Shown here piece by piece: positions 9,804 to 44,400 of a stretch of DNA of 64,000 nucleotides (position 1 is its first letter; each line of letters starts with the position of its first letter). The DNA is taken from assembly GCA_973895155.1 (NCBI GenBank), contig OZ316896.1, positions 4,655,925-4,719,924 on the forward strand. The letters are read 5' to 3'. The translations under genes were made by a program, and so were the position numbers. Below the pieces are notes generated by a model that was given only the letters and a program-made list of their open reading frames with translations, had not been told where the DNA came from and ran no database searches. Source of the stretch: Marsupella aquatica. Taxonomy: Eukaryota > Plantae > Marchantiophyta.

Positions 9804-10711
9804 TTACTTATTGGACTTATCCCGGGCTTCTATAGCACGGTCTTTTTCGGCAGATAAGTATTTCATAAATTTGTCAAACTTTTCTAAATGGTCTTTATTC
9901 CCCTGATTACGAATGATCACGTTTCTCCTCCAAAGATTCGTCTTATCAATATAATCTTTCTCAAGATTTTCTTGAGAGAACGTTGGAATCCCATATCCAC
10001 TAAGGAGCTCGCGGAATGTCAACTTGTCAATTGACATGTCGCATAGATATGGATATAGTTTCTTTCTAAAAAATAGGTCATCATCAAGCCCAGAATATGC
10101 ATCGGGATACAACGATGAATAGAAGTCATTAAGGCTCGTCTTATATGCAGCGTCATCGATAAGAATGACATTCTCGATGTTGTAATCTTTAATATCGGCG
10201 GCAATGTCCGAGAGACATTTGACAAATAAAGGGATGTCATTATTATTCTTCCCAATAAGTCGAGTTGATTCTTGTCCCCATATAAATTTAATACGTTTCA
10301 AAACTTCGGGTCGAAGTATTAGCCTTACACAAGATAGAATATTTTGTTTGAACATGCACGACCAGATCGCAATGTCGTATAGATCTGCCACCTTCTCAAG
10401 AAATTCCATTAAATCAGGCCTTGGATAGATAACCTTGTGCATCTGTCTCACACCCCTTGACCGAATGGGCATCCCAGGGCTGATCTTCTCTGACCAGATA
10501 AGTACCCGATTCAGATCAAAAATTACAAGTCTCTTCTGAACCGGTGACTTCTTTGCCGATGGATTAGGCGTCATCTGTACCTGTGATTTTTGTGCCACAG
10601 GGTTTGGAGAACGTACTAGAATGGTCTGTTTGTTTCCCGCCTCCAGACGATCACCGGACTTCCGGACTGGTGCCTTCGATACTCGATCAGGGGGTTTCGG
10701 GATCTAGGCTT
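9804..10711 (-). CDS. FCP1/NIF-like HAD phosphatase domain, copy 1 (cargo exon)
   Basis: RLVIFDLNRVL...PRPDLMEFL...IAIWSC...FIWGQE...ENVILIDD, the FCP1-like HAD signature. Confidence 0.8.
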
Positions 10712-17865: not shown

Positions 17866-17975
17866 AGATTATTTTCACGCGACTGGTCGCGTCTACAAAT
17901 CAGAATGCATAAACAATTCTTTGAGAGACTGATTTTTTTGGGTCACAACGTGACAAATCATAAATGTTGCTTCGT

Positions 17976-18722
17976 CCTCTAACAGAACCAGTCAATGAGA
18001 GAGCAACCTCAGACGCGACTGGTTGCGTCAACTGAACCTAAACAACTATATCCACTAAACCTTTTGTGGAGATTTGGATATGGTACGCGCTCAGTAAATC
18101 TATCCAGTTTCCTTCTCACACGCGGCTGGTCGCGTCAACTGGTCCTAAAAGGAACCTTACCTCCTCTAACAGAACCAGTCAATGAGAGAGCTACCTCAAA
18201 CGCGACTGGTCGCGTCAACTGAACCTAAACAACTATATCCATTGAACCTTTCTTGTGGAGATTTGGATATGGTACGCGCTCAGTAAATCTATCCAGTTTC
18301 CTTCTCACACGCGACTGGTTGCGTCAACTCGTCCTAAAAGGAACCTTATCTCCTCTAATAGAACCAGTCAATGAGAGAGCTATCTCAGACACGAGTGGTC
18401 GCGTCAACTGAACCTAAAGAACTATATCCACTGAACCTTCCTTGTGGAGATTTGGATATGGTACGCGCTCAGTAAATCTATCCTATTTCCTTCTGACACG
18501 CGACTAGTCGCGTCAACTCGTCCTAAAAGGAACCTTACCTCCTCTAACAGAACCAGTCAATGAGAGAGCTACCTGACGCGACTAGTCGCGTTAACTGAAC
18601 CTAAACAACTATATCCACTGAACCTTCCTTGTGGAGATTTGGATATGGTACGCGCTCAGTAAATCTATCCAGTTTCCTTCTCACACGCGACTGGTCGCGT
18701 CAACTGGTCCTAAAAGGAACCT
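17976..18722. repeat. Tandem repeat, ~188 bp x4, with two CACGCGAC-NN-GTCGCGT palindromes per unit
   Basis: Unit start cctctaacagaaccagtcaatgagag at ~17976, 18163, 18352 and 18541; lies upstream of the minus-strand cargo cassette. Confidence 0.9.
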
Positions 18723-19844
18723 CACAGTATTTTCACACGACTGATCACGTCAATAGCTCAAACAACTTTTGGACAATAGGATAATACAGTGATACAACTG
18801 TGATTACTGACCCGTACGGACAAGGAAATCCAAGTAAGCATGATTTCATTCATTTGTATTCATTCATTTGTATTCATTCATGAACTTTACAATAATTCAG
18901 ATGTTTGAGCTCTGTCATTGTGAAACTATTATATATCAGAAGTTTAGAGAATGATCCAGCTAAGATGATTCAATTTAGCAGTCTACTGGTTGTATTCGTC
19001 AATTAAAGGATTCAGTGTAATGAGATTCACATAACATAAGAGTTTATATGATTAAATTCACAGCGTGCAAGTTTGTAATGACTTACTTAAGACGATTCAG
19101 GTTGTATTTTAATTAGTGAGTTTGTATGATTCACACATATTTGAGTTTACAAACAAACCGCATTATGAAAATTGTGCTTAATAATCAAGAGAAATTTTAG
19201 CAAACCACAATCAACACCAGCAGAAAATGTAGAAATTACACCTGAATTCTGAAAAATTGATGTAATCGTCTGAGAGATTGACGTCCAAGCACTTGAAGAC
19301 CTTGCTGCGGCATTCCAGAAAGTAAATATAAGATTGAAGATATTAATATGCTAAGCAACAACAACACAACTTCTATACTTCTATACATAGAGCTTCGCTG
19401 CCACCAATTGAATAACATGTGCTTAATGCTAAGGAGCTCATTATGTCGAGTTAAAAAGACTCTTTCAGAAGTATAATCAAAGCTGTGGATAGGCAAACTG
19501 AGCATGAATAAAAGCGCACTAAACCTGAAGATTCAAAGAGGTGAAACAAACCTGAATGCTGAATGGAAGGAACTAAAACAAGCTGCCAAAAAGTAGTTCG
19601 AGCTGCTGAAACACGTTGATTGAGCTGATATGAGCTTAAAATTGGCTGACACGAGCTGATACAAGCACTCCCAAAAAGCTAGCTGCAACGAACTAGCAAA
19701 CTAGAAGTGAATATGAGCTGTAAATGCGAGCTGCAATGCGCCAACGAGCTCCTGGTCAAAACGATGGACAACTACTAAGAGCTGCAACGCGCCGACAAGC
19801 ACCTGACTACCACGAACGAGCTGCAACAACAAAAATGAAATCCA

Positions 19845-22577: not shown

Positions 22578-23053
22578 CGCCCTTCAAACAAGAGATGCTG
22601 ACCGAGACTAAGAATTGGAAATGAGAGAGCTGATGTGCGAATAGATTATCCAGTAGCCAGAAAATGGAATGCGTGGGGAAATGAGCAATAGGGATCATCT
22701 CAATGCTTTATACTGTTTAGTCTTCACTAGTCATTGTACATAGTGGTTTCTAGAAGAGGGTGCGCGTTTGACTGGCGCGTATTAGAATTGGCGGGAAGTT
22801 CAGTTGTCCTCTAATTATGGCTTTAATTTCACATTTAGCGACCGCCCTGGGAATACTGATTGCTAGTGAAGTCCTGAGATTTCTTATGAAGGTCAGTAGT
22901 TACTGACTGTCCGGTGTCCACTCATTGGTAAACTAGTACTGTCCACTCATTTTTCCTGAGTGGAGTTGAAATGATTGTTTGTAATCGATTGTAGTCGTTC
23001 TCATTCACTTGAAATGACTGACGGACCATGCATTATCTTTACCGGTATGTGTG

Positions 23054-23500
23054 ATGCCTTTAGATCCGTAATTGTATCTTCCTGTCTCGCGCGCAATCGT
23101 ATCTTACTTATGAAGTACCAATTACGAGCTAGAGTTTGGGCCTAGCCTTCTAGCTTCTACGTCGTAGACCCTGTACCCTCTGACTAAGGTCACGCGACAT
23201 GCCTTTAGATCCGTAATTGTATCTTCCTGTCTCACGCGCAATCGTATCTTACTTATGAAGTACCAATTATGAGCTAGAGTTTGGGCCTAGCCTTCTAGCT
23301 TCTACGTCGTAGACCCTGTACCCTCTGACTAAGGTCACGCGACATGCCTTTAGATCCGTAATTGTATCTTCCTGTCTCACGCGCAATCGTATCTTACTTA
23401 TGAAGTACCAAGTACGAGCTAGAGTTTGGGCCTAGCCTTCTAGCTTCTACGTCATAGACCCTGTTATCCCTACACCCTCTGACTAAGGTCACGCGACTAG
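23054..23500. repeat. Tandem repeat, 145 bp x3, in the divergent promoter region
   Basis: atgcctttagatccgtaattg at 23054, 23199 and 23344; each unit ends in the half-site ggtcacgcgac. Confidence 0.9.
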
Positions 23501-25365
23501 TCGCATGCAGGGCAGTGCATTGACTACATTCTGCCTACTTATTGTCGGTTGTGATAGGACAATGCAGTTCACGGACGTTTTACTGGCACTTATTAGCACT
23601 ACTGTCCTCAGTAGTTACTGACTGTCCACTCATTTGTTCTGAGTGGATGTGAAATGATTGATCGTAATCGATTGTGGTCATTCTCATTCATTTGACATGA
23701 CTGACGGACCATGCATAGTCTGTTGCCGGTATGTGTGGTACCTCTAGGGTCACGCGACCAGTCGCGTGCAGCGCAGTGCATTGACTACATTCTGCTTATT
23801 GACCGACGTGACAGGATAGTGCAGTGAAATTGACGGACGTGACAGGACTGTACGCTTACAATGATATTCTCTGATGTGCAGGATCATAATTATTATGGTG
23901 ACATCGACAGTCTGGATCAAGGAAGGCGGACAAGTTATTATAGGCATACGTGAGAAACAGGTTGGAAAAGGTCGCGTGATAAGTCTTGATCCTTCCAGGG
24001 TTTGTCACAATATTCCTCTTGGGGCGGACAGAGTTCTTCTTCTATTGGAGGAAGTTTTTGACGAGACCATTCTATGCGAAGATGGCGAACTTTTGAAGGA
24101 CATGATTGGGGGTTACCTTGTATGGGAAAGGAATCAGCTTTTTCGAGCTTCCATGGAATTGGAGGATGTGTTTGGCACTGTTGGTGATGATCAAGATCCA
24201 GTCAATCAAAATTCTGATGGGAACAACCATAATGAGAGTCGGTCTGGTGTGGAAGTAGTTTTACCAAAGGCCTTGTAGATGGGCATGCCTGTAAAGGTGG
24301 TGGATGAGAACAAGTTGATTTTTGCAGTGGCAACTATACATGTTCTAGATCCTATAGTGAAGCTTGGGGATGTCACCCTTGGGAATACACATGTGGGAAT
24401 TCTGATCAACGATTTTGTCAAGGGAGCTACCATAGATCATCTGAAGCATAGAGATTGCTTAAAAGCTTGGTCGATGGACCAACTCATTGCAAAGGATGGC
24501 AACTTGTTGTCTTTCCACAACATCAGGCAAGTTGTGGGAGGGAACACATCTCCAACAAGTGGCTGTCTTACATCCATAAAAGTAGGAAAAGAAAGAGTCC
24601 ATCTTCCCAGACATCTAGAAGAGACACATCTTTGGCACGTCAAGATGTGTTGTTGATAAACACCAAGGACTGTTGTAGTGAACCTTGTTGCCAATATCTG
24701 GACCGCAACTTGGCTATGGCAATTAGGCAAAAGTGGTGGTCAAAATCTTTTGCCGAGCGCAAGGAGGAGGAAATCAAGGCTATTAAAAATACAATACACT
24801 TGGGTACTGGAGAAAGGATTCTAGCAGTGGAGGGCAAAGTATTGTGCTTGGAGGCATGGAGAATCATTCATTCAAGAGGAAAGACTCAATTTTATGCCTT
24901 GAAGAAGACTGTGATGGCTGGAATGAACATAGGTACCCATGGTAATGCTGGAAAAAGGCGTATGTCCGAGAAAGTATCTCAAGCGTTCATGTCAATGAAA
25001 GAGATTATTGAGGAGGCAGCTGATCATCATCCAGCCAAGTTGAGAACCATGGTAGATAATACAAGGATGGTTTTGAGGGAATTGCCAACAAATCTTACTT
25101 GGGAGAATATTAGAAACAGGGTTAATGTTGTCAACCAGGAGGCTGGTCTTCCTCCAATTTCCCAACCCACCTTGAGTCATCTACATTAGATGTATTTCAG
25201 GGAGTTCTCACGTCACAAAAAGGGCAACAACTTTTCAAAGTGTACAACTTGTAGTGAGTTGCTTCAACGGAAAGCAAACCTTACAGGAGCTAAGGAAGAG
25301 TTAGAGGGCCTAAGGCGTGACGAGGAGGAACATCACCAAGACCACACACAGCAAAGAATGTGCTA

Positions 25366-25932
25366 TGTCGTGCGCATACACATCGCTACACAACATATTC
25401 AAACATAGTCACAATCCACTAACACGAACATAAGAGAATGGAGTACAAATGGAACCAATGTCCACATGCCCAAAACCCACAATAATCTTTTCTGGATGAA
25501 ATCGAACAACGATCAGTGCTAATCCAACAACGATCCCGTCCGACACGATCACACATATATGTCAAGCCCAACGCACCTTGTGCTTCAAGGAATCCACGTT
25601 ACTTGCACACAACCTGGTCAGCCACACCATAGCCACCAAGCTCATGCTCAAAGGCTCAACATTGAAAGATGAGGCCTTTGAGCCAACACAAGGGGATAAC
25701 TATCCCTCACACCAACTCAAACTAAACACAAAGTGCTCATATAGCACACATACAAAACCTCTATACCCTGGATAGTACGATATACTTTACTACCACTCTA
25801 AATGGTGTGACAGCTGTCGTGCGCATACACATCGCTACACAACATATTCAAACATAGTCACAATCCACTAACACGAACATAAGAGAATGGAGTACAAATG
25901 GAACCAATGTCCACATGCCCAAAACCCACAAT
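25366..25932. repeat. Terminal repeat block A(25366-25483)-B(25484-25812)-gc-A(25815-25932)
   Basis: The two 118-bp A copies look identical; B (329 bp) recurs at 34811-35139 with 3 transitions seen. Confidence 0.92.
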
Positions 25933-25942
25933 CGCCCCCCTA
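25933..25942 (-). promoter_or_regulatory. Polypurine tract
   Basis: Minus strand TAGGGGGGCG directly precedes repeat A. Confidence 0.7.
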
Positions 25943-26105
25943 GCTGGGAGTGAGGTCCTCTAACTCTAGCTAGCCATGAGTTCTACAAGGTTAATATACA
26001 CCTTTGTAGGTGCAAAGATCAGGAGGCCGGGTGCAAGTGAGCCCCATCGATCGCCTACCTGAAATCTATATCTTCCACAAGAACACAAATGATAACTAGT
26101 CGGCA

Positions 26106-27626
26106 TCACCGACATTGAGGACAAAACCATGATCCGCTAGGAATCATGTGCAAGGGTGGTGTCAAACACGACATGTGCCATCCTCTAGAACACCTATCAC
26201 AAATCAACATAGTAGCTGCTTCCTGAGCAGACCCACACAACATACACTTCAAGCTAGCACGAACATGTGCCAAGCTTGGATCCACAGTGCCATCAATGTT
26301 TGGAAGGTGACATGGCGCACAATTACGCACATGATCCTTCCAAACCATACCATCACGCCCTTCCAACATAAGGACTCCAGAAGGCAACACTTCACGCACA
26401 CGCAAGATTGTCCGCCTTGCAGTCACATCAAGCGTTGTTGGTGCTGTCTGCTACAAATAAACATAATCGCCAGGATGAAATCTCCTAATCTTCGTGCGAT
26501 AACCTCCTCCACGAATAGTAGCATATCGCAAAGTATCACGATGCTGGGCAATAGCAAGGTTGTCAAAGGCCATGGGCATGACTCTCTCAAAAACTCGTGC
26601 CCTCTCTGAACAAACATTTACCCAAATATCTGGATCATCCAAATCCACAATAGTTGCAACATCACGACGAATAGCCGCTGGCAAATCTGGCTCTCTACCA
26701 TAGAGCAAGAAATAGGGTGAGAAGGACGCAAGTGATGCTTGTCGACTGAAACGGTAGCCCATAGCTAACCAAGGTAGTTGGAGATCCCAGTCTCCCAAAT
26801 TACCAACCTGTAAGCCATACTTGCGCAATCCTCTCTTCACAGTTTGTACAACTCTCTCTGCCAATCCATCTGCCTCAGGATGATCGCGAGAAGTAGTACG
26901 ATGGTCAATCAGAGCTTGCTCACACAAACTCTCAAAATCTCCACGGAATTCCGTGCCCTGATCAGTCAACACCTCAGCTGGTGCTCCAAAGTGACTGAGT
27001 ACTCGATCCAGAAATGTGGTAGCCACTCCTCCACTAGCTTTATCTGGCAATGCCACTAGTTCAATCCACTTGGAGAAGTGCTCCACCATAACCAAAACAT
27101 AACGGTTATGTCATTGGGTGAGAGGCAATGGACCAGCAAAGTCCAAACTCCATCTGTACCCCAAACCCATGATTGGCAATGGATGCAACTGGGGAGTGGG
27201 AGCATTAAATGATGCCCTCACTCGATCACATACCACACACTTAGCTATCAGTTGCTGGACATGAGTGTGCATATCACGCCACCAATACTGTGTCTGCAAC
27301 AAGCTATAAGTGCGCTTGACACCAAAATGCCCTAACTCCTCGTGCGCATGTCGCACCAAATGTACTCGTTGTGATGGTTTTGGTACCACCAATACCTTAC
27401 CATCACGTAGTACTCTCAAAAGATGGCTTCCTTCCCATCGAAACCTCTTGGCTCTCTGTAGAACCCTGTCACGTTCCTTGGCATCAATACTGCCAACAAT
27501 AGAACCACTACGCAGATATTCCAACACTTTCACATCATTGTGAATATCTTGCTGTCCAAAAGTTACCTCACCAACATCCACATCTGAAGACTCATCATCT
27601 GCTTCATCCAATGAAGTAGAGTCCAC
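26106..27626 (-). pseudogene. Integrase (H2C2 zinc finger, DDE core) with C-terminal PHD finger
   Basis: AHEELGHFG...CVVC; WSLDFAG...LTDQGTEF...GLAERVV; CMLC...CDRCSRGWHMSCL...WFCPQC. Stops at 27111 and 26451. Confidence 0.9.
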
Positions 27627-27671
27627 AGAACCACTGCATGCTGGAACCCAACAAAGGAAGGCAGATGCATG

Positions 27672-29183
27672 TCATCCTGGCACCATCTCCTTATCTGATT
27701 CATCATGCCATCTGGCTCCAGTCTCATCCTCCTGACTGGTACATGGATTGCGGCTCAACCCATCTGCATCCAAATTCACCTTTCCAGGCCTATGCACCAC
27801 CTGGAAATCATACTCCTGTAACAACAATGCCCATCGTGCAAGCTTCCCTGTAAGCTTGTCAGACTCCATTAACCACTTGAGAGGCTGATGATCAGTGATC
27901 AAAGTGAAAGGATTACCAAACAAGTAACAGCGGAAGTGTGCCATAGCCCACACTGCTGCCAAACACTCTCCCTCATAAGAGCTATACTTAGCCTCTGCTA
28001 AATTGTTTGATCTACTGGCATATGTCACAACAAACTCATGTCCTTCATCATCTTTCTGAGTCAGCACTGCTCCAAGTCCTACTCCACTCCAATCAGTGTG
28101 TAGCTGAAATGGTCTCCCTGAAATGGGTCTTCTCAAAATAGGGGATGATGCCAATCTTTCTTTCAACTCCTGAAAGGTATGCTCCTGATCATCACCCCAA
28201 ATCCATTCCTGATCCAACTTAGTGAGTATGGTCAAAGGTTTAGCAAGCTGGCTAAATCCTTTAACATACCTCCTATAGTAGCTCGCCAATCCCAAGAATG
28301 CACGAACTCTACTCACATCAGTAGGACGAGGAATCTGTGTAATGGCCTCCACTTTAGTCTGTTGTACACCCAATCCCCCTGGGTATATAGTGTGGCCCAA
28401 ATACTCAATCTGTTCTTGGAAGAACTTACACTTGCCGGGATGGAGCTTCAATCCATGTTCCCTCAATCTCTCAAACACAATCTGCAAGTGTCGTTGATGT
28501 TCTTCCACAGTAGAAGAATAAACCAAAATATCATCAATATAACATCTGACAAAATCCAGACCTGCAAGGATTCGATCCATGACTCTCTGGAACTCAGCTG
28601 GTGCATTCTTCAACCCAAATGGTAAGAACAACCACTGATACAAACGATCCTTGCCATAAGAATCAATTCCCCAGAATGCTGTCTTGGACCTGTCAGAATG
28701 TCTGATTAGAAGCTGATGGTACCCTGCCCTCAGATCCAATGAACTAAAAACCTTTGCATGCCCCACTGCATCAAAGATCTCCTCAGGTGTGGGCATGGCA
28801 TATCGATCAGATTTTGTCTGACGATTAATAGGTCGGTAATCACCACACATACGCCTATCCGTGTAATTACCATGCACATCCTTCTTGGTTGGCATCACTG
28901 TGGCAGATGCATACTCCCTGTATGAGATCTCCACCAAACCAGCCTCCAACAAATCTTGAGTTTTGCTCTGAATCAAAGCTCTTTCCATGTCACTATAACG
29001 ATATGGTCTACGAAAGATTGGCGCATCACTAGCCAATTCAATCTGAATACCAGGGCCCTTCAATGTCCCCAAATCCTTCATGCTGAATGCAAAACAATTC
29101 CAATAACTCTTTAGGAATTGATGCATGCGACGTCTCTCCTCCCCTGTCAACTTAGGACCAATCTGTGGCTCCCAACTCTCCAC
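27672..29183 (-). CDS. Reverse transcriptase and RNase H (gypsy type)
   Basis: RMCGDYRPIN, LDLRAGYHQ, LPFGLKNAP, YIDDILVYS, LHTDWS, EGECLA, TDHQPL, ADGLSR. Confidence 0.95.
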   Translation of the reverse strand: MESWEPQIGPKLTGEERRRMHQFLKSYWNCFAFSMKDLGTLKGPGIQIELASDAPIFRRPYRYSDMERALIQSKTQDLLEAGLVEISYREYASATVMPTKKDVHGNYTDRRMCGDYRPINRQTKSDRYAMPTPEEIFDAVGHAKVFSSLDLRAGYHQLLIRHSDRSKTAFWGIDSYGKDRLYQWLFLPFGLKNAPAEFQRVMDRILAGLDFVRCYIDDILVYSSTVEEHQRHLQIVFERLREHGLKLHPGKCKFFQEQIEYLGHTIYPGGLGVQQTKVEAITQIPRPTDVSRVRAFLGLASYYRRYVKGFSQLAKPLTILTKLDQEWIWGDDQEHTFQELKERLASSPILRRPISGRPFQLHTDWSGVGLGAVLTQKDDEGHEFVVTYASRSNNLAEAKYSSYEGECLAAVWAMAHFRCYLFGNPFTLITDHQPLKWLMESDKLTGKLARWALLLQEYDFQVVHRPGKVNLDADGLSRNPCTSQEDETGARWHDESDKEMVPG

Positions 29184-29231
29184 CAGATCCCTAATATCTT
29201 TTTGTAGGGTAGAAGAGATAGCCGATGATTG

Positions 29232-30764
29232 CTATTTAGCAGTAGATTGAGCAGTCCCTTCCTGCTCAACAATCTGTCCAGCCTTGGCCAATCCTGCCAT
29301 AGGTCCATGGACTGCCTGCTCGCCCCCAACTGTGGTCATCATTGTCTCAGTGGACCGCAAGCTCACTAATGGACGATTAGTAACACCAGCAGAGCGCATC
29401 CGCAACTGTTCAGCTACTCCCAAGCTGATAATCCAAGTCAAGCAATTCAAATCCATGGCTTGACCAAGGACTTGGCGGCGTGAACTCTCTAACACCGAGG
29501 CAACTGCAGTAGTGCCTGTCAAACATCCCATAGCATGCTCTCTTTCATCAGCAGTAGGCTCCACTAATTGCTGTAGGGTTGTATCCCATACAAGTCCAGG
29601 CCCACCTGCTCTAAATGCATATGAAGCAGAATGGCTCACAAAAGTGGGTAATGCACAACGCGGACGACCAACTACATTGACCACTGCCAATGGAGATCTG
29701 TCAGACTAGGTCACATGTTGTGCACAACGCCCTGGATCCAAAATATCATCCACCACCAAGGATGTTGAGCGAGGAATGCTATCAAATGCTCGCTTCAACA
29801 CTTCAGAAGGTAACAAATTAGTCCACCACAAGCGTGGACGATGTGCACGAGAACCCACACGTGCAGCATCCAATAATACAGCAGGTCCAATCCAAGATCT
29901 GACCTGATGTACACTAGCAACAAGTCGATGACGCTCATCACCCAATAGTGGCACATTCTCCAAAATGTAGGCAGGGGAATGTGTTTGGTGTAACTGGAGA
30001 TGACGCAATACCCGTAACATCTCCCAAAACAATGCAAAGCGTGGATCATGAAGTCCATGTCCAACTCCAGCTCTTGATTGGCCTTGACATGGCCAACCAG
30101 CAATCACCAAATCAATGGGGCCAACGCGATCCAAATGATCCGCCCTCAGCAATGAAATATCAGCCGGCAATGCATGCTGATAGCCACGAACAGCATCCAC
30201 TGGCAACAACTGTGGATAACGGTCTACCAACATAGCCACATGGCGCAATGAGACTCTCCGTGTTGTCTCATCTGTCTCCACATACAAGTATCGACGCACA
30301 GGAATTCCTGCCTGAAGAATAGCAACCAATCCAGTGCTAATTCCACCAAATAGATCAAGCAAACAAATACCCTCTGGTGGATACTGCCATGCAATAGGAG
30401 TGGTATCCAATGGTGAAAGAGTCATTGGCCCACTTGTAGGAGATTGCTCTGCTCCTGACTGTGGTGTAAAAGCATGACGCCATGCATCATGTACCAATTG
30501 TGCTGCCCTCTGCGGCAAGGCTTGTGCAGTACCCCATACTGGTGGCACAACACTAGTTGGATTGGGATCATCCCAATCCAGGTTGCTCCTTCGCACCATC
30601 TGCTCCTCATGTGACTCCTCCACTGATGGAACATCTGCTGCATGTGCATTACCCTCCATCAAATCATCAGGACCAGTGATCACACCATTGAAGGCTGCCA
30701 AAGACAATAGTGTGGGTTTAGGGCCTCCCACAGGTCCACTAAATCGCACTGGCAACCTGCTCAA
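29232..30764 (-). pseudogene. DNMT3-like C5-cytosine DNA methyltransferase inside pol
   Basis: Motif I LLDLFGGIS, IV AGWPCQ, VI ILENV, VIII AHRPRLWWTNLP (compare DNMT3 AHRARYFWGNLP), X-like VLGQAM; in-frame TAG at 29706. Confidence 0.88.
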
Positions 30765-33224
30765 TCAAGCATCTCCTGACTGCCAATCAGGTCTGTATGA
30801 CACTGATTCATCCCAAAAATCAAGAATAAATCCCATGGGGTATAACACTGTACATCCCACCAACACGTCATAGGACTCGGCCTTAGTCAAAATAGCTTGT
30901 GCCTGTATGTGGGAGCTATCCTTGGCATGACCCTCCTGAATCCTCAATTCAAGTGGTCGTCTGGTGATGTGTTGTGTGGGTGTAGGTCCCCCCAATGAAG
31001 TCTGAATAGGAAAGGGACACTCCTCCAGATCATCTGGACGCAATGCCAATCCTTGTACTGCAGACTTACCCAACATCAAGGGCTGAGCACCAGTATCCAG
31101 TAACACTCTCTCTGGCTGGTATATGGCTCCAGTAGGCCCAACTAATCGGAAGATACCACTCCGATTATCCAATGACACAACACTAGGTTTAAACCTAGTC
31201 CTCTCAAATGCAGGGCGTGCTGGTAAATCCACCAACCTCGCTGCTGTTGCATGCCAGGTCTCGCTAGTAGCCGTAGGTGGCATGATCTTCATAGCTTCAA
31301 CACTGCAAGCTGCTTTTGCATGGGAAGCAACAACTGGAGTGTCCTCACAGAGTGTAGCTGCCAATCTGAACACTTCTACAGGACCAACTCCCAAGTTCAG
31401 CATGTTTGTAGCTGAAAATAATGGGGTGCGCACTATGGTAGTAGCCGCCCCCAGCAGGGTACCTGTCATCCCTGCTGCATCACTACCTGATTCTGCCAAC
31501 TTACCCACGTTAGGGTTTGTCCGAATCGGGTTCATAGAGGCAGTCTGAACTCCCGTCTGAACTGTCTCTGACAATGTAAAAGACTGAGGAAGCTTTGTCT
31601 GACGACGTGCATCCCCCCTCTGTGGATCTAGGTCCACTACTGCTCCTCGGGGCTCAAGAGCTTTTGCTGCCCCACGCGTCAAAGCTGTTGATGCATCAAT
31701 GTGTGCAGTGCCACACATGAATCCCATGGTGGCAAGATCTCCATCAACCCCATAAGATGTGGAAGCTCCATAGGATGTAGAAGCCCCATCACCAGAAGCA
31801 GGTCTCACCTGAGAACTAGCCATAGCAGCTAGTTGTTGCTCCAATTGAGCAATCTTAGCATCCTTAGGATCTGTGGTCACAGCAGGAGCAACCTGACCTC
31901 CCTGCCTTGCTACATGTGGCATACCTCGGCCACGACCACCACCTCTACCTCCTCTTCCCTGATCATGTGTGCGTTGTCCTCCTCTCCGTAACTCGGGATG
32001 GAGTGAGAAACACCTATCCTTGGTGTGTCCAGGAGCTCCACAATGATCACACTGCCGCTGATCAGGTGCTGAGGCCCCTCCTGACCCTCTAGGATCAGGG
32101 CAATACCGCTGCGCATGATCCCCACCACAGGTCCAACATCCTGATTGTTGTCCAGCATAGGAAGGCACAGGTCTCTGACTGGTAGACTCTCGTGCAGTAG
32201 GCTTCTCCCTCTGGCTCTTCCGTGCAACAGGCTGTGGTGTGGATGTAGATGCAGCCTTGGGTGCTTCCTTGGCAAATCCGGAAGTCACCACCTTCTCATT
32301 CACCATATTGAGCTCAATTCGCTCAGAAAGTGTAAAAACAACTGCCAATGTGGGATCTGCATCCCTAAGCAGAGTGACATCTCTCACTCTACGTCGCAAT
32401 TCTCTATCCAGAATTGCATACCAAAATTGGACTGCTTGAGCCTCTGTCACTCCCTTGGTGACAGTGATCAATCTGCGCATACGAGTGTATGCCTCACGTA
32501 GACTCTCTCCAGTCTTGCGCTGAAACTCCTAGAGACCCTTCAACTTATCAGTCCTCACACCCTAATAGTTTTGCTTTAATACTTCAAAGAACTCCACCAC
32601 AGGGTTAAATGTTGGCGTGACTCCAACCCCTGTCACAATCGCACTGGTAGGAGTAGCGGTGGATGTTGTTGGAGTGGTACTGGTAGATGGTGTGCCACTC
32701 TGGCTAGTGCTGCTAGAAGAAGCAACAGCTGTAGCAATGGGTTGGGCAGCCGCTCTAGTGCCATAGGTGATGGACACATAATTAGGTGACCAATGCTGCC
32801 TCCATGCCTCAATCTCAACCAAATGAGCCTTCCGAAACTCATGGTAATCATCCATGGGTGGCCCCTCCAAATGCTGAAATAATCCCTTCCATGCCATGAA
32901 AGGGGTAAACAACGTGGCATTACGCAATGACTGCATGTCGCACCACGTATCAAACTCCTGGATGAAGTCATCCAGATCAATCGTGCCAACTGCACCAGAG
33001 TATCATCGTGGGCCCTTTGTAGCCCTGTACATCTCTTCCATATCCCACAACAAAGGTGCAATCACCTGATGACAAGGAGAATTGGTCACAGAGTCCTCGT
33101 CAGAATCACTATCTGAAGCTGCACTTGCAACTGCTATCAATGTTGTTGGCCGAAATGGCACCCCACTTCGAGTGAAACCGGTCCTCTGTCCCTCGGACAG
33201 TTCCGTAGCACCCGAAGAATCCAT
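30765..33224 (-). pseudogene. Gag (two CCHC zinc knuckles) and aspartic protease
   Basis: CWTCGGDHAQRYC, CDHCGAPGHTKDRC, LLDTGAQP; upstream gag fragments are broken by TAG stops and a frameshift. Confidence 0.85.
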
Positions 33225-33781
33225 GATGACAAATCTGCCCTAAATCATCACCATCACCTTCATAATAGGCTTCACAATGCCCCAAGGTTGTAGCTAAGAA
33301 TCCATGCAAAATTAATCCAATCTATGCATCTAGATGGATTCAGAAGTATAAAAAACCTCCAAGTAGCATCTAATTTGGCCCAGAACAGGTCTCTAGACAA
33401 ACTAATAAGTGTATAAAGCCCCCTGGCCCTTTAACTTAGACAACAAGTTGTGAAAACTTGTGTGTACACTACATGCCATAAGAACCCCATGGTTAAGCAC
33501 GCGTAGGAGGAATAGCTTTGGGATGGGTGACCTCCCCCTTGGAGTTATGCACCAACTTAGGCACTCCAAACCAACCAATTGTCAACTACTCCTCACGTAC
33601 CAACAAGCTACCTTGCGGCCCGCTCCGGTCTGGCTCCTGTTCCGTCCTCACGCCCCTCGTCATGAGTCGCCTTGAAACGCGAGATGAGCCTAAGGGAGCC
33701 CTTCACACCCGCCACACTTCGCTACGTCGGGGTGAACCTCCAATTCAAATCCATTCAATAGTCATCCGGACGCCCGGTCCA

Positions 33782-34230
33782 CAAGTTGGAGTGGGATGAT
33801 CCCAGTCCAAGTCCTTCACATCCTCTACACAGGTGAAGTCGCCAAGATACAGTTGGATTGGGTTGATCCTAATCCAAATCCACTTCAAGGTCCAGATGAG
33901 GTCTCTGGACACGCCAACATACAGTTGGATTGAGATGATCCTAATCCAATTTCACCTTCGCCCAAAATCAAGTCTCCAACGTTGTCAATGTACAGTTGGA
34001 TTGGGATGATCCCAGTCCAACTTCAACTTCAAGTCCAAATGGGGTCCGAAGTTACCAATGTATAGTTGGATTGGGATGATCCTAGTCCAAATCCAACTTC
34101 GAGTCAAAATGCGGTCTCAAGAGACAACCCACAATTGGACTCGGATGATCCCAATCCAAATCCAACTTTGAGTCAAAATGAAGTCTCAAGAGACAACCCA
34201 CAATTGGACTCGGATGATCCCAGTCCAAAA
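33782..34230. repeat. Array of 7 hairpin motifs (TTGGATTGGGATGATCCCAGTCCAA-like), period ~70 bp, in the retroelement 5' leader
   Basis: Copies near 33786, 33853, 33925, 33996, 34066, 34135 and 34204. Confidence 0.85.
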
Positions 34231-34796
34231 CAAGGCGCGCCACAAAACACGCCGCAATTCTCGGACCAAAACACTGTTCAACAATATTGTCGTTTTCCTT
34301 GTGCCCTAGGTCGCCGCCGCACCTCGTCGCAACGCGGACTCCATCGTGACGCCGACAACGCAATTCACCAACATTTGATTGTCACTTTCTTCGTAAAAGT
34401 GTACTATCCATCAACGAATCTCAAATCCACAATAGTCTTTGCGATGCTGCAACGCAATCGATAAGGACTAGAACTCCAAAAACACAATGTAGCAACTACC
34501 ACTTGAGGCGCCTTCTGATCTTCGATCAATCCCTCATTGCCATAGCTTCGAGAAGCTCCAAATGTCAATCCGGTAATCAACTCCAGAGAGAACTTCAATG
34601 AACAAACTATCAGAGAGCTTCAAACAGCACCACGCTGTACTCTCAGAGCAATCAATAGCTCACAATCTCCAATCTACCAACGGCTGATCTGACTTGAGCT
34701 ACCACAAGTCAACCAGCAAGATCTCAACAATCCAAGCTACCATGGATCAACTCTGCAATACAGCAAGCTTCGAAACAACTTCGAATCAACTTGCAG

Positions 34797-34810
34797 TCAT
34801 CTTTCAATGT
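34797..34810 (-). promoter_or_regulatory. Putative self-priming primer-binding site (Tf1-like)
   Basis: 14-nt perfect inverted match to 34986-34999 inside repeat B; abuts the repeat border; no TGG tRNA-type PBS here. Confidence 0.7.
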
Positions 34811-35139
34811 AATCTTTTCTGGATGAAATCAAACAACGATCAGTGCTAATCCAACAACGATCCTGTCCGACACGATCACACATATATGTCAAGCCCAACG
34901 CACCTTGTGCTTCAAGGAATCCACGTTACTTGCACACAACCTGGTCAGCCACACCATAGCCACCAAGCTCATGCTCAAAGGCTCAACATTGAAAGATGAG
35001 GCCTTTGAGCCAACACAAGGGGATAACTATCCCTCACACCAACTCAAACTAAACACAAAGTGCTCATATAGCACACATACAAAACCTCTATACCCTGGAT
35101 AATACGATATACTTTACTACCACTCTAAATGGTGTGACA
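34811..35139. repeat. Terminal repeat B (5' end of the retroelement)
   Basis: Matches 25484-25812. Confidence 0.92.
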
Positions 35140-37117
35140 GCTATCATACCTGGAGATATGAGTCCATCCATCGTCCAAAGGAAGTGTTATGCCTTATTCA
35201 TGATAAGATGGATCATTCAAAGACAGCTCTCCCAAGAATGCCCTTCAATCCTAAGCATGTGGATGGTGCCCAAAAGTTCTCAATTACTGTCACTGGTATC
35301 CTTACTCATGGTCATGGTCCCAAGGCCATAGCCCAATATCATGTTGGAGTGTGGCCAGGTGATGTCAACATCACTATTGGGTCAATTGATTCAATACTAA
35401 GGATGTTGGAAAACCCAAATCCAATGATCAAATCACTTGTGGAGGGGCCAGACTCGACAAGTCTTTTTAAAGACCTCCTTTTTGGGAGAGCAGATATCTT
35501 GGAGGCAAGTGTCCTTAGAGCATTTGAGGATGACATTGCCTACATCTCAAGCCTAGGTACTTTACTCACAATCCTTTAATTTATTATTATTTAATAATAT
35601 AGGCTCACACACACTGACACTCTACTTTGTGTAGTTGTTGCTCCTCCTAGCCAAGGTTTCATTAATAGGGTTTAAACCCTAAACCCTAAATTGGGGTTTA
35701 GGGTCTGACTAGGGTTTTATTTAAAAGCATTCTGAGATTGTTACATTGTGATGCATCACCTAAGGCACCAAAGTTCAGGCCCCTTCCACGAGTATTGAAG
35801 CTACAACTGGATAATTGTGCCTCAGACAACAAGAACAGATATATGATGGCTTATTTGTCATTGTTGACGGCAAGGGAGGTGTTTGAAGAGGTTCATCTTG
35901 GTTTTATGGTGGTTGGGCATACTCATGAGGACGTTGACGGTATGTTCGGGCATTTTTCAGAGTCTATGATGCATAACCCCACATACTCATTGCCTGAGTT
36001 AATGTCCTTGTTCATGAGAGCAAGGACACCCAATGCAGTCCCAGATTTCAAAAAATACTTAGCTCCATTCATGTTGAAGGGCCCTGAGGCATTGGTGGGG
36101 CATTTAAAACCCAGGCAGTTTAGGTTCTATGTTCGTCATGATAGTATGCCATGCTTCCAATACAAAATGAAGTCAACTGATCAGGGATGGTTACCCAAGG
36201 AAGGTATTGAAATGTGGTCATGGAAAGATGACAAAAGTCCTCACATCCCAATTGGGGTGCCCAAACGGCTACCAATGATGGAGTTGAAAATGCTTCCTGA
36301 AGTGCTGACAGGGTTCTGAAGCATGTGTCATTCTTTGAGTTTATTCTAAAACAAACAAAAGAGGAAGAACCAAAGCGACGTTGGAAAACTCTCATCAATT
36401 ATTGGAATGACATTGTAGATACTGTACAGGGTGAGCAGGTGCAATATGAACCTGAAGGTGCACACAACTTGGAATACGGGTTTTGGCCTTTATCAATATG
36501 GAGAGAGCACGTTCCACCAGAATATCGAAATGTGGCATGTGAGTTGGAGGCAACAGTGGATTATGTGGGACCAGCAAAAGATAAACCTCCTGAGAGTTTT
36601 AACCCTAGGGTTGATGTTGTGAAGGGCTGTTATGTGTTGGTACGGCCGGACGACTCAGACCTGGATGTTTATCCCGTCCATATGGGGTTAGTTGTTACAG
36701 ATGTGGTAGAAGGACCAGTGAATGAACAAAACCTTCTTACTCATGTATGTGGCGTTGAGTGGTTTAGACCATTTATGGCAAAGAAGCAACGTGGTCAATC
36801 AGACTGGCAGCCAAGAGAGCGGTGGGCAGATTCTTGGGATAAGAAATGGGAACGTGATCCATCTCCAATATACAAAGAAGCTGAGACAATAGATGTTTCC
36901 TTTGCCTTGTGATGTTTCAAAGCACGCAAAGGACCAGTGACAGGGCTGGTAGGAATTCCAAAGAATGTTGCTGTCAAGGCAAGAGACTATCTCTTGACAT
37001 GCATAGCAAGTGACAAATCCTAGACAGTAATGAAGCATGTAGTTTAGCATACAGTTTAAAAGGCAACTCAGAATAGTAGTAGCCAGAGAACTCAAGTTTA
37101 GACAAGTCTTATCGTCT

Positions 37118-37695
37118 AAGTTAGTTAGTTGGTTAGTTTATTTAAGATATAATATTAGTTAGTGGGGCCTTAGTTTGGTGATATTAAGGCATGATATTAT
37201 TGACATTCAAATGAGTGTCCAGTAGACATTGTAATATACAACAATCCTATTAATAAATAATAATTATAGTTACACCCTCAAGTGAACTCAACTTTCAATG
37301 ATTTCTGATTTTATATGGTTCCGTGCCTGATTGAGTCAAAGCAATAGAAACTAACTAATTAAAGGGTGATACTATAATTGTAGGTCAGGCACCCTGGTGC
37401 GTGTCAATCTTTTTTGTATTCAACCCTATAGTAATTAAATAGACAAGTTAGTTAGTTGGTTAGTTTATTTAAGATATAATATTAGTTAGTGGGCCCTTAG
37501 TTTGGTGATATTAAGGCATGATATTATTGACATTCAAATGAATGTCAAGTAGACATTGTAATATACAACAATCCTATTAATTGTTGTAAAGAAACTAATT
37601 AATTAAAGGGTGGTACTTACTATGATTGTAGGTCATGCACCCTGGTGCGTGTCAATCTTTTTTGTATTCAACCCTATAATAATTAAATAGACAAT
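37118..37695. repeat. Subterminal tandem duplication of the DNA transposon, AT-rich, 2 copies
   Basis: aagttagttagttggttagtttatttaagatataat...caaccctata.taattaaatagacaa repeated with an internal indel. Confidence 0.8.
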
Positions 37696-39118: not shown

Positions 39119-41462
39119 AAAGAATAAAACACTTCAGTGTCTTATATATCAAAAGAAAGTTGCATATTACCCTAGGTAAAGTGTCACACTGAGGAAGTTT
39201 GAACAATGACCTAACTTGCTCATACTAGTACAGTAGAGATCACTCTTCAGAAATTGGAGACTAAATAGAGAGGAGAGGAATGTTCATTGAGCAGCTTGTT
39301 AGCTTGTCAAGCTATGGTGGATCATGTTAGTGCTTAATTAGTGTTTTCTTCTCTCGACTATAAACTTAGCCGAGACAAACTGAACAATGTGTCTTTGTGT
39401 TAGTGTCCATTGTATGCTGTATACTCGTTCCATGCAATGTCCTGCTGATCAATGTCGTCCAAACACTCCCTCTTCCTGGTTGTACTCGTCCGAGAAGGGT
39501 TTTGTGAGTATAATTGAGTACATATGGTCTATTGCCTGGCTATGACTATTTTGCAGAAAGGGTGAGCTTGAACTTCCACCTCCCCTAAAAGCTTGTGCCA
39601 CTTTTGGCCAAAATTTGCTAGTATTTTTCTGTCTCATTAACCAGTGTCCCACCTAATCATAGGCCCCATTAGCCAGCCAGAATCTAACAGTCATCCTTAA
39701 ATTTAAGATCTGATGGTCAAGAAAATAATTAGATAAGAAATATTTTTGTACATTTGCCACTTTGACTAAAAAGTTCCCAAGGACTCACTAATCTCATCTC
39801 ACACGAATAACGAAACAATGTTCGTTCATGCAACTAAAGAAATGATCTCAAATATGGTCACTCTAACTTTCCTTTCTTCGTCTTCTGTGAAAAATATACA
39901 AACATGATGCTTCCAGAAGCAATTTGCCCGGATGCAATTTTAGTCTGCTCTGTTTTGTTTTGCGCTGCCATATTATTAGGCACTGAGCTCTTGGGGCGCG
40001 TGCAGCATAAGTTTAAAGTGGCTTCTGTGCTTAATTCTTACCATGAATCCAAGTGTCAACTATTAATACGTACAGTCCTAGTACTGCCTAAACTCGTAAA
40101 CTATAGATCAACCGAGACGGTTGTCCCTTCCTTCCACATGCCCTGCTAATAAAAATAATAATATCGTAGGGTCTTTGTACAGTTGTGTGGCTGCTGATGG
40201 TCCGATCCACAGTGAGAACCAAGTGTTCGTCCTACGTGTATCCTTTCCCGGAACCAATCTGCAGATTGTCTGCTTGAGGCCAGAGACAATACACTACTAC
40301 AGGCCTGACTTATCATTACCGTAGCATCCGGGCTACGCCGGAGCAGATCGATGGATGAATGGATCCTTCGGGAAATAGCAGGCAGGGAAAGAGCGCTGCC
40401 TTTGCTCCATGTTGGCGAAAACGCGGAATGACCACCAAAGTCAAACGTGGACTCGTTCGACTGTGTAGAACTGTAGATTCACAAATCACATCATCACAAC
40501 GCTTCGCTTCTACGTGAGAAGTTGGGAACTACTTCACTACGGGACAGCAGCTAAACTAAGCAAATTAAAGCCGACTCTATGGACAAATTATTACTGTAGA
40601 ACATTTCGAAATCCAAATTAGAACTCTTGCGATCTTCGCCGTTGCTCGTTCGCAGAAATCTGTCAGGGGGCCTCGCAGTGTCGCTTTCTGGGGCTGGCCA
40701 GGTCTCTTGCCAGGAAGGATCGATCCTGACACATAGATCGGTGTTTTTGTTTGTTCAGTGGCCATCAGTCTGCACGCCATCGTCATTTATCGCGCCCTAG
40801 GTTTAACTGTACAAGTACAGTAATGCTGGTGGTTATTGTTATGATTTTTTTTGTCCACTCAGCCTCGATCTGTCATCCTTGTTACTTCCGGTTTCTTCTC
40901 TACTCCTCTTTTTGACACGGAATACTCAGGACCCTTTCTTAGTAAACGATTCGATCAACACCTCAAGAAGGAAGGGCAAGCGTTATTTACTACCTGCCCT
41001 AAACGAGAGGCTGTGCTGCTTTCAGGTCTCGACGCACTGTTTCTGACCTACTTCCTCCTTCGATTTCGATGCAATCCGTGGCACCTTGAAAATGTCTTCT
41101 TGCGCTAGCTGCGCATCTATATAACTTCTGTATCGACCCAGACAGAATAAAACGCGTCATACGTCTATTTCCTTGCTGTACTCGCTCCCTTCCAAAAGGC
41201 TTGACAGCCATGTAGATTTTTTCTTTCGTCGATGTTTGGAGAGAGTTTTTCGTTGCGTTCAAGTGGAGCTGTCGTCCAAGAGCTCGAGACACGCTCTCGA
41301 TCTTCCTGCAAGTGCGCAAATTCGTGGAATTTTGATTTCTGATGTGAGAACGATATGTCGAGTTTCACAATGTGTGCCTGCAATTCTTGAACTAGCTTAG
41401 GTGTGACTTCAGTTGCCCGATAACGAATTCTGGCCCAGGGGAAGGTGGTCGGGGAAGTGACG

Positions 41463-44400
41463 ATGAGGAGCAAATCACCGGCGTGGCGCGCTCAGCTTGG
41501 TCTGATGGCCTGCAGCGGACGTGTTCTCTTGGGCCTGTTTCAGTTCCTTGCCTTCTTGTGCATTGTATGTGGCCAGCAGGAGACGGGATTTTTTCTGAGA
41601 GAGTTGAACTCCTCGTCGGTCAACTGCTCTGGGAGCTCCTCACCAACGCCGGATAACGTGCCAGGATTGCGACACGCTGCTTGCCTCACCCCATTTCCAT
41701 GTATCGGCGACACGGCACGGGCACAAATTGCTGGGCAGTGCACTTACAATAAATTGATCCAGCTTCCACATTCGCCTTCTCGGGCGCGCTCTTTCAGTAC
41801 GATGTTCAGTTTCAACACGCTGAAATATCCGACCTACTTACCTGGAGAGGGCTTCACGTTCTTCTTGGCCCCTGCAAATCCTGACAATGTTAGCGACAGG
41901 GTTGGCGGCGATCTCGGGTGGCTTAGCCAATCCGCCATAGCTTCGGGCAATTACTCGGGCCACAACTTCGCGGTCGAGTTCGACCTCGTCAGTCAGACTA
42001 CCGGTGGATTTAATGATCCACCCGGTGAACATGTGGGCATCAACCTCAACAACCTAAATTCTACTTTGTTGAAATTGTTTGGTTCGGGCGATGATCTCAC
42101 AAGTCTTTCGAGTGTCGCTACGCTGTTTGTTTGGATCGATTACGATGGCGATAAGAAGTGGATTGACGTGCGACTCAGTCAAGAAGGCTCGAAGCCTTGC
42201 AAGTCTCTCCTCGTTGGCTCTATTGATCTAACAGACGTTCTTCTCGACACAATGTCCTTGGGCTTTTCCTCCTCGACTGGAGCTGCGAGCGATTCCACTC
42301 CCTACAATACTCAGACGACAATTTTTGATTGGAGTGTTAGCACCTCTGGCAAGGCAAGCGATGGCACGAACCATTTCTCCTCGATTGATTGCCACATTAG
42401 ACACTAGCTAGCTCTCCTAGACTTTCTGGAAAGCTTGGTCTGTTCATCCATCGATCTCTCTATCGTGATGTTAGACTTTAGACAGGAGCTCGCAAGCATC
42501 TTCAAATAGTCGTGTGCATCTATGCAGCCCTCCAGAATGATGTACTGATATTTGCTTGCGTCTGCAGGCTACAAATATTTACCGCCATGACGAGCGTTGC
42601 GGTCTCGTGGTGTCCAAGACAACGATTCTCGGTATCATCATCGGTCTCCTGAGCTTCCTCGTCCTTGTCATGCTTGGCCTGATTCTTTTCTTAAACTACG
42701 TCAAAACGAGAAAAGTGTCGGATTTGGAGAGGGAAAGGGCTGAGCTGCTAGCGGAGCTGAAGAATTTGGATTTTGGGGCACGGGCATTCACCTATCAAGA
42801 ACTTTTGGTAGCAACCGAACAGTAAGACACTGAACTTGCGCGAAAATGTGCCATGCGTTTCGTTTCGATAACCGTATCATCTTTAAGTGCATGCCCAGTA
42901 GTGATTTGAGCCTGGTAGCACATGTGAATGCTATCGAATTGTCAGTAAGGTACTTGAGATTGACAATGATCGCGAATTTTCAGGTTGGAGATGTATGTAC
43001 ATGATCGTTAGATCGCCACAGATTTGCCATGGTTTCAAGTGTAATTCTTATGGAGAGTGTTTCATGGTTTGATCCACCAGGTTCACACATAAAATTGGGA
43101 ATGGAGGTTTTGGAACGGTGTTCAAGGGCACTCTAGTGTCCCACGTCAAGGGCGACGATACGATTATTGCTGTCAAAATGATTAAAAAGACGCCGGACTC
43201 TGCCGACGACGCCAAGCAGCTGGTAGCGGAGGTGAAGGTGCTTGGCAGGTTGAGGCACGTTAATATCGTCCCCGTTCTCGGATGGTGTGCCGAACGAGGG
43301 CAAATGCTTCTCGTATACAAGTACATGGAAAACGGCGACCTCGATCAGTGGATGTTCCCTGCTGATTATGAAATCGAAGGTAAATAAATAAAGACAGTAC
43401 GATTGTGAAGGGCTGTAGATGTACCAATGACGTGCAATTGATGAAACAGTTTTTTGTAACAGCAGAAGCTGTTTGCGATGTACAGAAGAGCTATCGAAAG
43501 GGGCCGTAGCCACAAAGACTATTTGTTCGTGTTGCATGCGAAGTAACGATTTTCTCGCGGATCAGCAGTTTGCTAATGCTCGGCCTGGCTGTTAAACGTG
43601 TGCAGAAAAGGCAATCTTTAGTTGGGTGAAACGGATGAGCATTCTAAGAGGTGTAGCGTCCGCACTTAAGTTTTTGCACGAGGACTTTGAGTCCGATAAC
43701 ACTGTACTTCATCGGGACATCAAAACCAGGTTAGTTTTCCAAGAAAAATGGACTAATTTTGAACGAAGTACAAGAGCAAGCTATATCAGAATTAGTATGA
43801 TGGAGCTAAGTGCCACTGCATCTCATTTTTTATGGCTCGGTCCTTTCATGGCTCAGGAACGTCATGATCGACAGCAATTTCAATGCTCGCCTTGGGGATT
43901 TCGGGTTGGCCCGACTTTGCGACCGCAGCAGCCACGGATATCATAGCCAACAATTGGTTGCCACACCAGGATACATAGCGCCCGAGTACATGGCGACAAT
44001 GGGAGCTACCAAAGAGACCGACGTCTATAGTTTTGGAGTCCTAGCGCTGGTAGTCGCAACCGGCAGGTAACGACAATTGTCTTCAACTAAATTTCTGAAT
44101 GTGGACCAAGTGACTAGTACAGTTTATCAGTTTCCAAATAGACAATTGCATCAGCAATCTAGCGAATTCGTTACAAACACAAACAGATTCGCCCACGCTC
44201 TTGGACTGTAAGTGTTTCCTGCTTGTCGTCCTATTTGATTTTTAGGACGGACGTGGTGCCAGCAGATACTGACGTCTTGTGTGGCTGTCCTCGCAGGAAG
44301 CCTCTTGATGCAAAAGGAGGCCTAGCCAGGTGGGTGCGAGAACTCGATGGCGATGGAACGATAGCCGAGGCCGGGGATTCCAAACTCATGAACTACGATC

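Follow-up and report, generated by a model that had tools for sequence, protein, structure and literature searches.

The accepted view is that retroviral-type integrases use the ends of linear cDNA and that circles with two long terminal repeats (2-LTR circles) are by-products. The canonical Ty3/gypsy retrotransposon has two whole direct LTRs around its internal region, TG..CA termini with a short target-site duplication (TSD), a polypurine tract (PPT) abutting TG and a primer site abutting CA, and the order gag, protease, reverse transcriptase (RT), RNase H, integrase. PAT/TOC/Ngaro elements insert without a TSD. Split direct repeats, ordered A1-coding-B1-A2-B2 with the insertion junction kept internally, are otherwise described for such recombinase elements (PMC4157794), and a 2018 figure legend (Fig. 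4c) gives DIRS-type repeats together with gypsy domains for KnitGypsy-Dnmt3 of Klebsormidium nitens (PMC5890265). The integrase of foamy virus cuts its own palindromic junction after CA on both strands, leaving 2-nucleotide (nt) 5' overhangs (PMC1180852), and a 1984 claim of retroviral integration via the internal junction of a circle was abandoned once the linear precursor had been shown (PMC11054761). Self-priming, with a primer site complementary to the element's own LTR, is described for Tf1/Sushi and Tcn1 elements (PMC6317226). Here we describe, in a 64-kb window (the whole stretch of DNA analysed) of contig OZ316896.1 from the liverwort Marsupella aquatica (Marchantiophyta), a 9.77-kb Ty3/gypsy element on the minus strand (25366-35139; all coordinates are window positions) whose direct repeats are split and whose integrase attachment (att) junction lies inside the LTR.

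Repeat search and direct comparison gave the sense-strand order B'-primer site-internal region-PPT-A'-gc-B'-A', with outer ends TG..CA and a 4-bp target duplication, and bore out all coordinates and the B'-internal-A'-gc-B'-A' layout described in an earlier note on this DNA. The parts of the locus are:

25362..25365: target-site duplication GCTA, left copy
25366..25483, minus strand: terminal A', 118 bp, 3' end of the element, the sense strand closing ...GACA
25483..25484, minus strand: B'/A' joint, where the RT-defined ends are joined precisely in the window copy
25484..25812, minus strand: B', 3' copy, 329 bp
25659..25672, minus strand (also 34986-34999 in the 5' B'): 14-nt stretch of B' that pairs with the primer site, the predicted self-primer and start of transcription
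25809..25818: internal att junction, perfect palindrome GACA-GC-TGTC
25813..25814: GC spacer between internal A' and 3' B'
25815..25932, minus strand: internal A', 118 bp, directly after the PPT
25933..25942, minus strand: PPT (G-run) abutting A'
34797..34810, minus strand: primer-binding site abutting the end of the 5' B'
34811..35139, minus strand: B', 5' copy, 329 bp, 5' end of the element, the sense strand opening TGTC
35140..35143: target-site duplication GCTA, right copy
24452..36912, plus strand: interrupted host target, a multi-copy repeat with a DUF7869 frame

The two A copies show 0/118 differences and the two B copies 3/329, all transitions. At 25483/25484 the end on the PPT side meets the end on the primer side exactly, except that one T may belong to either. 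Because the host repeat frame (DUF7869 downstream) runs through once one GCTA copy is deleted, and because empty copies of the host repeat were found in 4/4 public runs, as contigs passing 25366 straight into the right flank, the reading of GCTA as a 4-bp duplication is supported. Both this duplication and the internal spacer start with GC, which is a coincidence, since the other TSDs (AAGG, CATA, ACCT, ACAA, CCAT and TACA) do not, while the spacer stays at 2 nt; its constancy over different TSDs also ruled out a spacer copied from the target. When set against the canonical features, the element has TG..CA termini with a short TSD and lacks two whole direct LTRs around the internal region; the PPT does not abut TG, lying 60-220 nt before the att junction, and the window primer site follows a non-CA end. 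Within the 64-kb window there is no second copy of the element, and neither a long read nor any contig listed from the public runs spans the whole locus. The layout is confirmed through other copies, the window assembly itself being without independent confirmation.

The wider survey used as relatives the best 80 of 399 loci from a metagenome-contig scan and 3 distant ones from viral contigs (loci are numbered with the prefix L). With a repeat library made of the A' and B' of six complete copies, 47 of the 83 loci gave a match, and after removal of 6 duplicate pairs 37 distinct 3' ends were available, window included. These comprised 21 ends of the form A'-2 nt-B'-A', 15 in which a single A' is followed by flank, and one partly deleted (L037); an ordinary LTR end (A'-B'-flank) was found in 0/37. 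The 36 loci without a library match consisted of 13 bryophyte-type loci, whose contigs stop within or just past pol or have an interruption at that place, 3 outgroups, 2 loci read by hand (L001 and L036), and 18 that were tested for the palindrome; the layout is present in L036 too, a member of a third subfamily, as A'-ac-B'-A'. The internal spacer is 2 nt in 21/21 copies (GC in 9, AC in 7, AT in 2, and GT, TC and AA in 1 each), the AC, GT and AT forms fitting a presumed C-to-T decay of GC. The length of the att junction never varies, unlike that of the B'/A' joint.

Both ends could be read in 11 copies, 8 of the form B'-internal-A'B'A' and 3 of the form B'-internal-A'. Exact 4-bp TSDs, each different, flank 7 of the 11 (window, L006, L007, L014, L033, L056 and L062); L025 has one mismatch, L052 two (both fitting G-to-A decay), L074 is eroded, and L023, a B'-internal-A' copy, shows an apparent decayed 8-bp duplication (L023:4137-4150 and 13214-13221). 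The target of L023 resembles half of the att palindrome. The early end of L033 (15 nt short, with an exact TSD) was considered as a cryptic att site and is explained by slippage of a tandem unit, the internal A' of L018 being equally shortened. Loci in which att-B' runs into a next gag (L001, L009, L050, L051, L055 and L070) were considered as circles and are probably collapsed repeats, with no evidence of real circles. The split layout is therefore real and family-wide: as the earlier note had expected, other copies with different TSDs share it, 21 of the 37 distinct 3' ends show it, the B'-internal-A' form exists too, and the ordinary AB...AB copies that would have spoken for a one-off rearrangement were looked for and not encountered among these ends.

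The signals of reverse transcription are placed in accordance with this layout rather than with the TG/CA ends. The primer site, the 14 nt after the 5' B', is the exact complement of 25659-25672 inside B', and primer site and B' partner change together across relatives while staying complementary, over 14 nt in the window, 16 in L007 and L001, 13 in L062, 12 in L075 and L063, and 11 in L025 and L033. Complementarity in several subfamilies thus points to self-priming as in the Tf1/Sushi-Tcn1 chromoviruses. A tRNA primer was rejected: there is no TGG start, the 14-nt self-complement is present instead, and the window contains no tRNA gene. TATAAA-like boxes stand about 25 nt ahead of the self-primer stretch in the second subfamily, and the window copy has no clear TATA box ahead of it. 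The predicted self-primer lies within a 10-bp inverted repeat of B' (25649-25687) read from the sequence. On the other side, A' begins directly after a G-run in all three bryophyte-type subfamilies, and none precedes the 5' TG in the 14 printed 5' ends. Within the window's own family, the loose ends at the A/B joint carry PPT or primer site only, among the matches listed. Because the primer site adjoins B' and the PPT adjoins A', the LTR defined by reverse transcription is A'-gc-B', of 449 bp and without TG/CA ends, as the earlier note had also deduced; its view that the ends joined to the target are those of the internal head-to-tail att junction, used by a DDE integrase with a TSD, is likewise supported.

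Apart from the 2 nt lost, an inserted copy is the predicted cDNA circularly permuted, which requires that the two cDNA ends become joined at some point; the B'/A' joint was typed in the 8 complete copies in which primer-side and PPT-side ends are readable from the same element. It is exact in 5/8 and altered in 3/8: in L033 2 nt are missing at an AT microhomology, in L052 a few nt are altered, and in L062 there are 134 extra nt copying the PPT and, upstream of it, the end of pol, as would be expected of a longer cDNA end. Elsewhere in the same repeats indels number 6 in 3733 bp, which gives P of about 2e-4 for 3/8 joints. At loci with only the 3' side, where the element's own primer side is not visible, L027 and L059 seem 2 nt short, L026 1 nt and L064 216 nt; in L020 a single T is added, matching the base with which the primer site begins. 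The contrast between att junction and joint fits an att junction that is templated and a joint that would be made anew.

The coding region and the leader hold the following features:

26106..33002, minus strand: single gag-pol frame with 8 in-frame stops (5 TAG, 3 TGA)
26112..26246, minus strand: C-terminal PHD finger (PF00628, Pfam)
26877..27377, minus strand: integrase zinc-binding and core domains (PF17921, PF00665, Pfam)
26877-27158: integrase core with short D-to-E spacing
27810..28862, minus strand: RT and RNase H (PF00078, PF17919, PF17917, Pfam)
29916..30161, minus strand: C5 cytosine methyltransferase, best Pfam stretch (PF00145)
33773..34234: tandem array in the 5' leader, about 7 units of about 70 bp that each contain a hairpin-like inverted repeat

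The frame contains two CCHC knuckles and a DTGA protease motif (both seen by eye), followed by methyltransferase, RT, RNase H, integrase and PHD finger. This is the canonical gag-protease-RT-RNase H-integrase order, the protease being recognised by motif only in the window copy and by Pfam aspartic-protease matches in relatives. The integrase is a retroviral-type DDE enzyme, its best solved matches being Ty3 (7q5b) and foamy virus integrase, and a six-frame Pfam scan of 25933-34796 yielded no tyrosine recombinase. The methyltransferase PF00145 is carried by only part of the relatives. Closest among named proteins are those of the liverworts Calypogeia (74-82%), Riccia (81% over part) and Marchantia (59%), followed by Klebsormidium, Closterium and chlorophytes. 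Against 1.8 expected, the frame has 8 in-frame stops, an excess considered as a sign of mobilisation in trans, with P 5e-4 for the point estimate but 0.16 when the upper bound is used; an alternative genetic code was rejected, as TAG and TGA are mixed and stand at sites typical of W/R/Q decay. The CpG observed/expected ratio is 0.38 in the frame (26106-33002) against 0.67-0.74 in the flanks, with TpG and CpA in excess, which is of note because the element encodes its own methyltransferase. A 25-nt hairpin-like repeat of the leader unit recurs once in the pol frame (30544-30587, between protease and methyltransferase) and is possibly a packaging or binding signal.

The internal junction also occurs well beyond the liverwort copies. 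The exact decamer GACAGCTGTC was found within 5 kb downstream of pol in 7/18 distant, mostly alga-type loci, with 0.02 expected from base shuffles, and in those 7 loci GACAGCTGTC lies 60-220 nt after a G-run; L001, L009 and L077 have it with one mismatch, and most distant loci without the decamer are contigs ending within about 2 kb of pol. A FastTree phylogeny of RT-RNase H was built with 82 rows, 7 duplicates having been removed beforehand and 12 rows of <70% cover dropped; L040 and L054 form artefactual long branches, L049 and L050 have no RT part, and the tree contains no named chromovirus reference sequences. In it, the exact-match loci L028, L051, L055, L070 and L076 and the one-mismatch loci L009 and L077 group with chlorophyte proteins (Haematococcus, Tetrabaena, Chlamydomonas eustigma and Pseudoscourfieldia; support 0.99), and this branch is nested in a green-lineage clade (0.94) together with the Klebsormidium, Closterium and bryophyte sequences. 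The offset from the second D to E of the integrase is 35 in 117/124 motifs of the fetched proteins and in six att-bearing loci (L001, L009, L028, L051, L055 and L070), against 36 in L081, L083 and arachnid outgroup proteins; the integrase core, shorter by one residue clade-wide, reflects one evolutionary event. In outgroup L081, TG directly follows the PPT; this canonical PPT-TG (L081:5794-5812), with an LTR that opens TGTCAC, the same letters as the window B', hints at the ancestral state. In some alga-type relatives pol and PPT are separated by an additional long frame (L028:11450-13831, 794 codons; L038:11300-11850).

With canonical Ty3/gypsy elements the Marsupella element shares the domain order from protease to integrase, the DDE enzyme, TG..CA ends, short TSD and PPT, and it differs in that PPT and primer site lie away from TG/CA, the att junction is inside the LTR, the repeats are split and the D-to-E spacing is one residue shorter. 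In the IS3 family, the spacer between the circle's ends comes from flanking DNA. As proposed here, a DDE enzyme of that family integrates a circle whose abutted ends have a short spacer between them (PMC3299598), but IS3 elements have no RNA step and their transposase makes the circle from donor DNA, whereas here the spacer is fixed at 2 nt. The A1-coding-B1-A2-B2 repeats and internally kept junction of PAT/TOC/Ngaro (PMC4157794) are matched by an element that has, unlike them, no recombinase in any frame, a DDE integrase and a 4-bp TSD. The foamy virus junction is likewise a palindromic CA-nn-TG cut after CA on both strands (PMC1180852), and the Panganiban-Temin circle model likewise has integration through an internal att junction (PMC11054761); as these sources describe them, however, the junction arises from joined cDNA ends and the provirus is colinear, whereas in the Marsupella element the LTR carries the junction as templated sequence, and no att site lies at the ends that are joined. 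Tf1/Sushi elements and the plant Tcn1 chromoviruses share the primer site complementary to their own LTR instead of to a tRNA (PMC6317226), and differ from our element in its split repeats and its PHD finger in place of a chromodomain.

KnitGypsy-Dnmt3 resembles it in having a gypsy Pol with a Dnmt3-type methyltransferase and, by the wording of the legend, DIRS-type repeats (PMC5890265); K. nitens proteins fall in the same RT clade, and one of them, P0041, carries PF00145. The available text of that paper gives no junction sequence, TSD, primer or mechanism, and the comparison is one with that description. The earlier note's statement that no description was known for gypsy elements therefore needs correcting, since the legend anticipates the repeat type, though not the junction analysis or a mechanism. 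Two further elements touch on the subject: Gypsy-7a_cRei has a PHD finger and "LTR subparts", with no split layout in the text available (10.1101/2022.06.16.496473), and Gypsy-DNMT3 is mentioned, in the part accessible, without repeat structure (10.64898/2026.05.21.726589). The literature covered, which leaves out most subscription papers, theses and Repbase reports, yielded no account of a mechanism for split repeats in gypsy elements. The element is thus a Ty3/gypsy member that departs from two canonical LTR features, a departure that is real and family-wide; the layout was mentioned in 2018 without a mechanism.

That the internal att junction is used and the cDNA ends are joined is common to the favoured reading and its two stronger rivals, and we consider it very probable. 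Beyond this, we favour, with a probability of roughly 0.6, a reading in which the cDNA ends are joined into a 2-LTR circle and integrase then cuts the palindrome of the 5' LTR and inserts. Transcription would start in the 5' B' at the 14-nt self-primer and end in the 3' B', so that the RNA would carry one intact att junction. Self-priming and the PPT, both visible as signals, would by presumed chemistry define a cDNA A'-gc-B'-internal-A'-gc-B' with no att site at its ends, and these ends would, on strong indications, be joined to give B'/A'. If the palindrome were cut with a stagger, after CA on each strand, two CA-3' ends would result, each with a 2-nt 5' overhang, the usual geometry of processed ends; insertion drops the 2-nt spacer and leaves the observed 4-bp duplication. 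As the product retains, upstream, the part of B' with the promoter and, downstream, a complete A'-gc-B', it would regenerate the same structure; the earlier note had credited the present product with this ability, and the window copy itself cannot regenerate alone because of its 8 in-frame stops. The B'-internal-A' copies, which would be dead ends, may stem from 1-LTR circles, from cuts at both junctions, or from recombination between A' copies at a later time. The sequence speaks against the linear cDNA ends, the canonical substrate, as what is integrated; the mechanism is well constrained, the order of its steps unproven.

Several observations weigh against circularisation followed by opening at att, which the earlier note had proposed. 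Joined ends and internal att stand, but a symmetric circle has two equal junctions and its mirror product, B'-A'-gc-B'-internal-A', is present in 0/14 distinct 5' ends; among complete copies the ratio is 8:0 (P=0.004 if both junctions are equal), 12 single-A' ends without a 5' side being untypable for the mirror form. An extra rule selecting the 5' junction must therefore be assumed. In the standard scheme of reverse transcription, as known from retroviral biology, the 5' junction becomes double-stranded first, and this early double-strandedness might serve as selector. Further, no circle or cDNA was observed, the material being contigs of genomic runs, and the circle route was rejected experimentally for murine leukaemia virus (PMC11054761). 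The joint is precise in 5/8 complete copies, the alignment of L052 is ambiguous, no joint indel occurs in the window's own family among the matches listed, and the joint region is T-rich, so that the background indel rate may be too low and the P value optimistic. A self-complement of at least 8 nt is absent in 3/16 loci and only 8-9 nt long in 5/16, in a scan of old copies that accepted exact matches only. Finally, the alga-type loci show the internal junction only, terminal A' and TSD not being visible.

Part of this would be relieved if integration came first, integrase cutting the internal junction in the 5' LTR of linear cDNA and host end joining sealing the free cDNA ends later. The same product and joint scars would result with no need for a free circle, and loading of integrase near the PPT end could explain the sole use of the 5' junction (0/14 mirror copies). 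Yet A' follows every 3' B' seen (21 copies, L036 and L037), and a chromosomal break might be mis-joined more often than the 5/8 exact joints suggest, which makes this order of events unlikely, if worth keeping in mind; the 216-nt loss at the L064 joint fits either order. Somewhat less probable again is a joint made by the element's own RT, through an end-to-end template jump, rolling-circle-like extension or a splinted single-stranded intermediate of DIRS/PAT type, with integrase still cutting the internal att. The losses in L033, L027 and L059 do fall at AT microhomology, the layout equals the A1-B1-A2-B2 pattern of PAT/Ngaro (PMC4157794), and directional synthesis could account for the missing mirror product; no specific scheme that we drew gives only the observed product, however, and an RNA-templated route would copy the joint faithfully and leave the PPT-bearing joint of L062 unexplained. 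We consider it very improbable that the layout was inherited from one ancestor with its joint simply copied, the cDNA truly ending in TG/CA and the PPT- and primer-like sites being misread. Most joints are indeed exact and the terminal B'A' unit resembles an ordinary TG..CA LTR, but each of the three bryophyte-type subfamilies has the G-run directly next to A', the complement of the self-primer adjoins B' and changes in step with its partner, and no G-run stands ahead of the 5' TG in the 14 printed 5' ends. A one-off rearrangement or misassembly of the window locus, to which the lack of a spanning long read and the GC shared by TSD and spacer might lend colour, is refuted at the family level by more than 20 independent insertions in other assemblies that share the layout with different flanks, and for the window we give it next to no credence.

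Elsewhere in the window, three adjacent frames with NIF/FCP1-like phosphatase domains lie at 8158-10703 (minus strand), and a frame with a legume-lectin domain at 41424-42407 (plus strand), consistent with a land-plant host. Two long frames of 490 and 947 codons (47183-51539, minus strand) have no Pfam match and include an internal tandem repeat of about 183 bp (49068-49982). Clusters of short tandem or dispersed repeats with units of 145-190 bp occur at 17975-18725, 22938-23825 and 37118-37694.

Taken over chlorophytes, charophytes and bryophytes, the data incline us, with some reserve, towards an old clade in which the att sites have moved inside the LTR, circularisation is obligatory before integration of retroviral type, the integrase core is short, and a choice of junction that yields live copies is built in. 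If true, this would be a natural and obligatory version of the circle-junction pathway proposed in 1984 and abandoned, and a convergence on the repeat layout of recombinase retrotransposons. With its conserved palindromic att junction inside the LTR, such a clade supplies a natural enzyme and a 10-bp substrate on which the circle question could be tested directly, and an integrase able to open a circle at a short, defined site and insert it would make a useful tool. LTR finders that need two whole LTRs (criteria as given in PMC6317226) would miss or mis-delimit such elements, and a terminal B'A' may pass as a solo LTR, so that their share in bryophyte and algal genomes may be underestimated.

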